From Thermoanaerobaculia bacterium (GTDB lineage: Bacteria > Acidobacteriota > Thermoanaerobaculia > Multivoradales > Multivoraceae), in the NCBI GenBank assembly GCA_028285365.1, contig JANQPS010000158.1, forward strand, positions 1-43,315: a stretch of DNA of 43,315 nucleotides. The letters run 5' to 3'. This document shows, piece by piece, positions 1 to 367 of the stretch (positions within the stretch are counted from its first letter, which is position 1; each line of letters starts with the position of its first letter). The translations under genes were made by a program, and so were the position numbers. A model generated the notes under the pieces. It made no database searches. It worked only from the letters and a program-made list of their open reading frames with translations, and was not told where the DNA came from.

Positions 1-367
1 CTCCGGTGACGGTGGCGCCCGAGTAGCGTGCGATTTCGATCATCGGGCCGCCAACTCCGCAGCCGACATCGAGAACACGCCACCCCGGCGCCAGCCCGAG
101 ATCGTTTGCCAGATCTTGCTCGTGACGCCTCAGCGACTGTTTGACCGTCTCGTCTGCCCTTCGTGGTGCGAAGTGAAACGACGGTCCCCAGCCAAACTCG
201 TAGAAGTCGGTCACGAGATCGTAGTAGTCGGTGACCATGGAGGCGTAGTTGGACTTGCGGGCCTCCACGGTTCCGTCTGAGCTCTCGTCGTGGAGCGCCT
301 CGTAGCGCCTGCGCTGCTCTTCGACGCTTGCTGGAGCTGATGGCGATGCCGCTTTGTGCCCGGTCAC
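1..367 (-). CDS. Sterol 24-C-methyltransferase (SMT/ERG6-like), N-terminal 122 aa, runs off the window edge
   Basis: Not in the ORF track; translated by hand from GTG at 367, with a GAGGAA RBS overlapping the upstream stop. Reads ...[34 protein letters not shown]...RHE...[26 protein letters not shown]. Contains SMT region I (YE[YFW]GWGxSFHF) and the SAM motif [10 protein letters not shown]. Confidence 0.92.
   Translation of the reverse strand, partial: [122 protein letters not shown]

Follow-up and report, generated by a model that had tools for sequence, protein, structure and literature searches.

The left end of contig JANQPS010000158.1 of a Thermoanaerobaculia bacterium carries the beginning of a predicted sterol C-24 methyltransferase (SMT) gene, directly downstream of a gene for a Rieske-type oxygenase, here called RieskeA. 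The stretch analysed (the window) is the whole of this contig from its base 1, 43,315 bp long with a GC content of 63.3%; in our genome set it is contig C492 of the host metagenome-assembled genome (MAG) G000, which comprises 9.11 Mb in 1394 contigs and is 92.6% complete and 1.3% contaminated. The 5' part of the SMT gene occupies positions 1..367 on the minus strand. From a GTG start at 367-365 the frame (2..367) is free of stop codons for 122 codons, or 122 residues, down to base 2; base 1 opens the next codon, and the piece ends with the contig after approximately the first third of the gene. A track of open reading frames (ORFs) that requires a stop codon would miss this piece, because the contig ends inside the gene. 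A sequence-only reading of the window had placed an SMT ORF at 1..367, and the open frame indeed holds every protein string quoted there. The piece contains the Region I sterol-binding motif Y/F-E-x-GWGxxFHF, whose columns are nearly invariant in an alignment (A1) of the two SMT pieces described here with 11 full-length SMTs, and the S-adenosylmethionine (SAM)-binding motif DxGxGxxGP in the form DVGCGVGGP. Searched alone against Pfam, it matches only the generic CMAS model, with 33.4 bits. A tblastn search with the full-length homologue P0001 matches the piece with 75.6% identity over 78 residues (E = 1.7e-33). The frame at 2-367 can be taken as real coding sequence and not a chance ORF.

RieskeA (375..1481, minus strand, 368 aa) is co-directional with the SMT gene and matches the Pfam models Rieske and KshA_C with 73.3 and 60.9 bits. 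A spacer of 7 nt (368..374, minus strand) separates the RieskeA stop codon from the SMT start, and a Shine–Dalgarno-like GAGGA is located 4 nt ahead of the GTG, overlapping the RieskeA stop codon TGA (377-375). Judged by this layout, the arrangement is operon-like, with the SMT as the second gene.

The remainder of the SMT gene appears to lie on another contig of the same MAG. A whole-genome profile search with Sterol_MT_C (PF08498) produced a single match in G000, at C944:346-531, with 73.9 bits against a cut-off of 21.7; the control for this search had matches in 0 of 14 genomes. The match belongs to the 3' part of the gene (G000:C944:1-537, plus strand, outside the window), a frame that is open from contig base 1, starts with ASFDAIYSIEATCHAP, stops at 535-537 and encodes 178 residues. 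Residues 7-16 of this piece read YSIEATCHAP and contain the IEATCHAP motif with Glu195. The sequence-only reading had proposed to look for Sterol_MT_C and an IEATCHAP-like region II in the missing C-terminus, and both the domain, above its Pfam cut-off, and the motif are present on C944; the label "region II" differs from that of Brown and Welander, who put E195 in Region III. In alignment A1 the N-terminal piece ends before the C-terminal one begins, and the columns between them, 179-216, are empty, corresponding to exactly 38 residues. Used as tblastn queries against G000, four full-length SMTs found one N-terminal piece and one C-terminal piece, the residues of P0001 matched in this manner being 20-97 and 136-305. 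The same queries found no middle SMT piece in G000, and otherwise matched generic class-I methyltransferases only (25-39% identity, in the SAM-binding region). Both pieces have a GC content of 0.63, and their GC values at third codon positions (GC3) are 0.74 and 0.76. Joined, they would give an SMT of about 338 aa, and bacterial homologues are typically 321-360 aa long. From this fit we conclude that the pieces on C492 and C944 represent one SMT gene split by an assembly gap, with approximately 38 codons unassembled.

One sequencing run (X1, labelled as a coral metagenome and possibly the source sample) was found to hold the stretch. The same run contains a 277-nt Logan contig (depth 4.5) that matches window positions 186-226, in the Region I coding sequence, with 4 differences and diverges on both sides. 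Judged by this divergence, the sample contains another SMT-like gene or another strain, which may have caused the assembly break.

PF08498 is present in all 92 homologues retrieved with the C-terminal piece. The best homologue is P0001, a protein of 360 aa from an ENA metagenome contig, with 60% identity to the C-terminal piece and, in alignment A1, 66% to the N-terminal one; the closest database relatives are bacterial or metagenomic SMTs with 50-66% identity. Brown and Welander report 25 residues that are conserved across all functional SMTs (2025 preprint, 10.64898/2025.12.19.695621). Position counting places 24 of these function-linked residues in the two pieces, while the 25th, Q154, lies in the unassembled 38 residues; the counting used internally consistent offsets of 25 in the N-terminal piece and of 185, 184 and 191 in the C-terminal piece, and no alignment to the preprint sequences. 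Counted in the same way and given in yeast numbering, the protein has Tyr81, Phe83 and Asp249. In a propylating SMT, a G249D mutant kept methylation, and its C29 and C30 products were no longer detectable (10.64898/2025.12.19.695621). In light of this precedent, Asp249 leads us to expect a methylating rather than a propylating enzyme.

In a FastTree phylogeny of 110 SMTs, the merged row of the window and C944 pieces is sister to P0001 with 97% local support, in a tree that has an arbitrary root and 37 of its 107 inner branches open. Locus L033 was left out of the tree as a duplicate of L005, and so were SMT-like ORFs below 170 bits. Eukaryotic sequences are scattered on its unresolved backbone, and one of them, the eukaryotic fusion protein P0091, has a branch length of 6.2. 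As the backbone is unresolved and the root arbitrary, we make no claim on the donor or the direction of transfer. The sequence-only reading had named a grouping with tocopherol or other methyltransferases as the outcome that would speak against an SMT; in this tree, which includes no non-SMT outgroup, the nearest relatives are SMTs. Together with the Sterol_MT_C domain and the IEATCHAP motif, these relatives bear out the identity proposed there, and we assign the gene to a bacterial SMT of the ERG6/SMT family with predicted sterol C-24 methyltransferase activity. Elsewhere among the SMTs surveyed, the SMT ORF at 1498-2496 (minus strand) of locus L003 (G032:C1), from a sister genus of the host, has IEATCCTQDK in place of IEATCHAP and has lost the nearly invariant His-Ala-Pro; genome G032 contains no RieskeA homologue and no cyclase match.

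The window contains two genes for Rieske oxygenases, RieskeA and RieskeB (1567..2694, plus strand, 375 aa; KshA_C 100.2 and Rieske 67.3 bits), and both products retain the CxH...CxxH cluster ligands and the HxxxxH iron motif, which in RieskeA take the form of CPH...CPFH and HFDVLH. The best PDB match of RieskeA is KshA (4qdc, 89.7 bits), covering mainly residues 10-182. Many RieskeA homologues are automatically named "cholesterol 7-desaturase" or "7-dehydrogenase" by JGI, and ESM Atlas clusters carry the same automatic name. By its domains and metal ligands, RieskeA can be classified as a putative steroid-type Rieske oxygenase similar to Neverland and KshA. SdmA was considered as an identity for RieskeA because Brown et al. 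report sdmA beside SMTs; their sdmA homologues are 44-47% identical to MCA1016 (Brown et al. 2023, PMC10070321). We rejected SdmA for both RieskeA and RieskeB, which score 47-48 and 62 bits on the SdmA model NF052579 (cut-off 600) and match it in the Rieske domain only. True SdmA proteins in two relatives of the host, G011 and G016, reach 399.5 and 397.2 bits over positions 4-343 and are encoded 3 kb from an oxidosqualene cyclase (OSC) gene, and the SMT-adjacent Rieske proteins of the same two genomes score 51 bits on the SdmA model.

The observation that a steroid-type Rieske gene adjoins the SMT gene was followed in other genomes. Species-representative prokaryote genomes were scanned with an SMT alignment, which matched at least 602 stretches, at least 545 of them encoding a relative. 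The statement of the sequence-only reading that bacterial homologues are uncommon is outdated in view of these numbers and of bacterial SMTs that are active in vitro (PMC10070321). We examined 89 loci, comprising the best 80 of the at least 545 relatives and 9 loci from relatives of G000; the best 80 come mostly from Myxococcota MAGs and also from Dehalococcoidia, Gammaproteobacteria and others. A RieskeA-type ORF directly adjoins the SMT in 26 of the 89 loci, or in 25 of 88 when the duplicate place (L033 = L005, from G011) is counted once. These ORFs are 41-46% identical to the window RieskeA over their full length, and several of the loci have a 4-nt stop/start overlap and the order SMT then Rieske, the reverse of that in the window. 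RieskeB-type genes adjoin SMTs in L070, L073 and L090 and are located 3-8 kb away in L063, L045 and L053. No OSC was found in the fetched flanks of the 26 SMTs with an adjacent RieskeA-type gene (six of these loci being only 3.2 kb long). An OSC is present within 10 kb of the SMT in 20 of the 89 loci, none of which has RieskeA.

The two genes are also distributed together among 61 relatives of G000. Besides G000, Sterol_MT_C was found in one genus (g12), where 16 of 22 genomes have it, compared with 0 of 38 others. Homologues of RieskeA (E ≤ 1e-40) are present in G000 and in 12 of the 16 SMT-bearing g12 genomes, with none in the other g12 genomes or in the 38 others, and in all 12 g12 genomes such a homologue is located at most 166 nt from the Sterol_MT_C match. 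The Rieske and SMT trees contain the same three groups, one with the window and P0214/P0215 (Rieske) or P0001 (SMT), one with g12 and a Chloroflexota MAG, and one with Myxococcota. The comparison indicates that an SMT-Rieske cassette recurs across bacterial phyla, and no paper describing such a pair was found in the open-access literature searched. A second RieskeA copy, 46% identical to that of the window and with one in-frame TAG, is located at G031:C1:2523726-2524742, far from the SMT-Rieske pair of that genome.

Two markers bear on the identity of the host. A CoA-transferase encoded on the window contig is 72-77% identical to proteins in seven genomes of the same family and 59-67% identical to those in genomes of the same order, and the GyrB of G000 is 91% identical to a metagenome protein and 67-73% identical to proteins of Acidobacteriota/Thermoanaerobaculia MAGs. 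By these similarities the window contig can be placed in a Thermoanaerobaculia-like lineage.

The only triterpene cyclase found in G000 is a squalene-hopene cyclase (TIGR01507, 630.3 bits, cut-off 431.1). No OSC was found in this MAG, the best match to TIGR03463 being the same hopene cyclase with 240.1-242.7 bits against a cut-off of 851. Squalene epoxidase (PF08491) had 0 matches among 7 scored candidates in G000, with a control that matched 2 of 14 genomes, and no SdmA orthologue was found in G000, where the best NF052579 score is 62 bits. The sterol C-14 reductase model ERG4_ERG24 had no match in G000, but the control matched no genome either, which makes this search uninformative. In G011, from the same family, about 6 kb hold the genes for an OSC-like protein (771.6 bits), for a true SdmA (399.5 bits) and for a cytochrome P450. 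Used as tblastn queries against G000, the OSC, SdmA and neighbouring P450 of G011 found matches with 27.7%, about 29% and 26.7% identity, respectively, none at orthologue level, and the OSC query recovered only the hopene cyclase. The sterol-core pathway is likely absent from G000, as judged by these searches.

Among the 12 g12 genomes with the SMT-Rieske pair, four have an OSC-level match (771.6; 358.8 + 352.6; 750.1; and 691.5 bits), compared with eight that have none, with scores at the level of hopene cyclases (at most 238 bits) or no match at all. These eight genomes are 97-99% complete and several are single contigs; G036, for example, has the pair in a 97%-complete single-contig genome with no cyclase match to either model. 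The OSC-like match of G016 (G016:C1:1403043-1405061) is divided into two stretches (model positions 2-321 and 317-633) within one open frame of 853 aa, which suggests a mid-protein insertion of approximately 20 residues.

The sequence-only reading had also proposed that this bacterium may make 24-alkyl sterols. As regards synthesis de novo this is not supported, as no OSC-level cyclase, squalene epoxidase, SdmA or CYP51 orthologue was found; alkylation of the side chain of acquired sterols by the host bacterium is plausible.

The analysis shows what kind of gene the SMT is, that it is split between two contigs and has an operon layout with RieskeA, that this pairing is conserved, and that the assembled sequence lacks OSC, SdmA and squalene epoxidase. 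G000 has a hopene cyclase and no detected sterol-core pathway, and the cassette therefore most likely acts on acquired sterols. We lean, by somewhat better than even chances, towards the explanation that the SMT-Rieske pair is a two-gene cassette that tailors sterols acquired from outside the cell. In this scenario RieskeA and the SMT would be transcribed together. Using SAM as the donor, the SMT would methylate a sterol at the delta-24 bond of its side chain, and RieskeA would introduce a double bond or a hydroxyl group into the same molecule, which in G000 would most likely be taken up from outside. What we infer is which substrate is used, that it comes from outside the cell, in which order the two reactions proceed and with what regiochemistry the Rieske enzyme acts. 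A broader proposal, which we put forward more tentatively and consider possible but on the doubtful side, is that the pair is a self-contained, horizontally spread cassette with which bacteria that do not make sterols would convert host or dietary sterols to 24-alkylated and further desaturated or oxygenated ones.

Several points weigh against tailoring of acquired sterols by an intact SMT-Rieske pair, and they concern in turn the pathway, the substrate and the gene itself. The first set would favour synthesis of 24-alkyl sterols de novo, with the OSC, epoxidase and demethylase genes merely missing from a fragmented MAG. At 92.6% completeness and with 1394 contigs, G000 could lack them by chance of assembly, and since SdmA, P450 and OSC are clustered in G011, and likewise in G016, they could be lost jointly, so that one small lost region could hide the pathway. 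Moreover, in addition to the 4 of 12 pair-bearing g12 genomes, an OSC-level match (679.6-747.6 bits) is present elsewhere in four of five genomes with the pair that were sampled from other phyla, and likely sterol producers are therefore also among the carriers of the cassette. SMTs are known from sterol gene clusters (PMC10070321), and an OSC occurs in the fetched SMT flanks of 20 of our 89 loci. We nevertheless regard synthesis de novo as unlikely in this host, as none of four independent searches of the 9.1 Mb recovered an orthologue-level match, the pair occurs without an OSC in eight of 12 nearly complete g12 genomes, and the fetched flanks of all 26 loci in which RieskeA adjoins the SMT contain no OSC either. 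Two further points are that the link of RieskeA to eukaryotic 7-desaturases comes from automatic names and that the SMT tree has an unresolved backbone and includes no outgroup of other methyltransferases. As regards the substrate, an SMT-family enzyme could instead methylate a non-sterol, such as squalene, an isopropenyl hopanoid or another isoprenoid olefin, for which the SMT-like triterpene methyltransferases of Botryococcus provide a comparable case. The presence of a squalene-hopene cyclase and absence of an OSC in G000 would be consistent with such a substrate, as would the finding that, of the metagenomic SMTs tested by Brown and Welander, 11 showed no activity with either of two sterols (10.64898/2025.12.19.695621). 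Against it, the two pieces contain 24 of the 25 residues that functional sterol SMTs conserve, with Region I complete, and the nearest solved and named relatives of RieskeA all act on steroids (KshA, and the automatic "7-desaturase" names). In G036, which has the pair and no match to a squalene or oxidosqualene cyclase, a cyclic triterpenoid could not be self-made, so that such a compound cannot be the general substrate, with squalene still possible. On this evidence a non-sterol substrate seems improbable to us.

The last set of points concerns the integrity of the SMT gene, whose two pieces are assigned to one gene by their fit and are joined by no read or contig. The 38 middle codons, including the one for the conserved Q154, are absent from the assembly, so that the case for an intact SMT relies on the two ends. 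Logan contigs of runs X1-X4, searched with window positions 1-1200, did not bridge the gap: a 2996-nt contig stops at window base 19 and has no loose end. The break thus falls inside the gene in two independent assemblies, that of the MAG contig and that of the Logan contig, which would fit a pseudogene broken in the middle. The additional SMT-like gene or strain seen in the divergent 277-nt contig may also have led to the break, or to a chimeric bin in which the two pieces come from different genes or strains. We consider a gene that is not intact very unlikely, however, because both pieces have uninterrupted frames, retain every conserved residue that could be checked, share P0001 as their best homologue (66% and 60%), leave a gap of exactly 38 residues and match in GC and GC3, and because G000 contains exactly one piece of each kind. 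Tailoring of acquired sterols by the SMT-Rieske cassette therefore remains the explanation that we prefer.

The genes around the cassette provide some further context. An intergenic region of 85 nt between the divergent RieskeA and RieskeB (1482..1566, no strand assigned, coordinates taken from the ORFs) presumably contains the promoters of the two transcription units. RieskeB is followed after 3 nt by a gene for a metallo-beta-lactamase-fold protein (2697..3503, plus strand, 268 aa; Lactamase_B_3, 41.6 bits), a protein with homologues in 0 of the 89 SMT loci. The next gene (3508..5682, minus strand, 724 aa) encodes a P450-cNMP fusion, with a p450 domain (157.8 bits) and two C-terminal cNMP_binding domains (140.3 bits). 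Its PDB matches are CYP120 (120.4 bits), CYP51 of M. capsulatus (119.4 bits) and regulatory subunits of protein kinase A (about 89 bits). We rejected the P450 at 3508-5682 as a CYP51 orthologue, since the 119 bits to the solved CYP51 reflect similarity at the level of the clan only; as a member of a CYP51/CYP120-like clan, the fusion possibly belongs to the same lipid-tailoring cluster. Locus L040, which has an SMT and an OSC, contains a stand-alone P450 and a separate tandem-cNMP protein about 2 kb apart, and together with the fusion in the window this hints that a P450/cNMP link recurs near sterol genes. Fusions of an N-terminal GPP34 domain with a P450, 675-720 aa long, adjoin an SMT or OSC in three loci from Dehalococcoidia and Arenicellales MAGs (L090:12232-14259, L084:6364-8526 and L077:7318-9447); their P450 parts are 25-28% identical to the window P450 and, of the P450s next to other SMTs, are the ones most similar to it.

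Past the SMT tail, C944 encodes a TPR protein, a porin-like protein and multihaem cytochromes, and no lipid genes were found on this contig beyond the SMT. At 4399-8231 of C944 (L103), a porin-like protein of 645 aa and two multihaem c-type cytochromes (Paired_CXXCH, Cytochrome_C7, MtrC/MtrF-like) form an arrangement that, by its predicted products, resembles an outer-membrane electron conduit. The remaining window genes, among them those for an ABC amino-acid transporter, acyl-CoA ligases and a fucosidase, show no sterol link. A second P450 (496 aa, p450 224.9 bits) followed by a methyltransferase of 245 aa is located at 32278-34574 on the minus strand; the best NCBIfam match of this methyltransferase is a daptide-type methyltransferase of ribosomally synthesized and post-translationally modified peptides, with 75 bits, below the cut-off of 175.

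The SMT is tied to a steroid-type Rieske oxygenase, and the pair is present in genomes without a sterol cyclase, as in eight of the 12 nearly complete g12 genomes. Steranes alkylated at C-24 are read as biomarkers of eukaryotes, and in part of sponges. If the pair does tailor acquired sterols, searches for complete pathways could not tell which bacteria alkylate sterols. Possession of an SMT, and with it the bacterial input to the 24-alkyl sterol pools of corals and sponges, would be uncoupled from possession of an OSC, and genomic screens for OSC plus SMT would undercount the bacterial sources of precursors of "eukaryotic" steranes.

Comparison with known systems shows where the cassette agrees with them and where it departs. 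With eukaryotic ERG6, SMT1 and SMT2 the window SMT shares YEFGWGxSFHF, DxGCGVGGP, IEATCHAP and the C-terminal domain, and named eukaryotic SMTs are 35-49% identical to the C-terminal piece; unlike them, it is operonic (7-nt spacing), lies on a 63% GC contig of the host lineage and has a tree partner of metagenomic bacterial type. RieskeA shares the Rieske [2Fe-2S] and KshA_C domains and intact cluster and iron ligands with Neverland/DAF-36 and KshA, but it matches KshA with 89.7 bits only, mainly in residues 10-182, and has no adjacent KshB-like reductase. SdmA, which in Methylococcus and Myxococcota acts on sterols as a Rieske-type C-4 methyl oxidase (Lee et al. 2023, PMC10202945), is likewise a Rieske oxygenase associated with bacterial sterol genes; SdmA proteins beside an OSC reach about 399 bits on NF052579, as opposed to 47-62 bits for RieskeA and RieskeB.

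An enrichment of SMT genes is known from MAGs of sponge symbionts belonging to ten phyla (PMC9531527), and of 24 metagenomic bacterial SMTs tested by Brown et al., 20 alkylated sterols in vitro and 13 were from clusters or MAGs with an OSC (PMC10070321). The main text and three supplement files of that paper contain neither "Acidobacteria" nor "Thermoanaerobaculia", and neither "Rieske" nor "7-desaturase". These known bacterial SMTs have the same architecture of a class-I SAM methyltransferase with Sterol_MT_C and Regions I-IV and likewise come from host-associated metagenomes, whereas the window copy is incompletely assembled, lies outside an OSC/sdmAB cluster and is paired with a Rieske oxygenase other than SdmA; by counting, it also has Asp at position 249, unlike the Gly of propylating SMTs. 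A further parallel is a Chlamydiae SMT from a MAG with no other sterol genes, for which the authors propose methylation of sterols acquired from a host (PMC10070321). It resembles the window SMT in belonging to a bacterium without other homologues of sterol biosynthesis and differs in its phylum, in having Gly249 and in producing 24-isopropyl sterols in vitro, and no mention of a Rieske partner for it was found. Bacterial SMTs as such have been established since 2023, and what the present locus adds to them is an SMT from a Thermoanaerobaculia-like acidobacterium and a coral metagenome.

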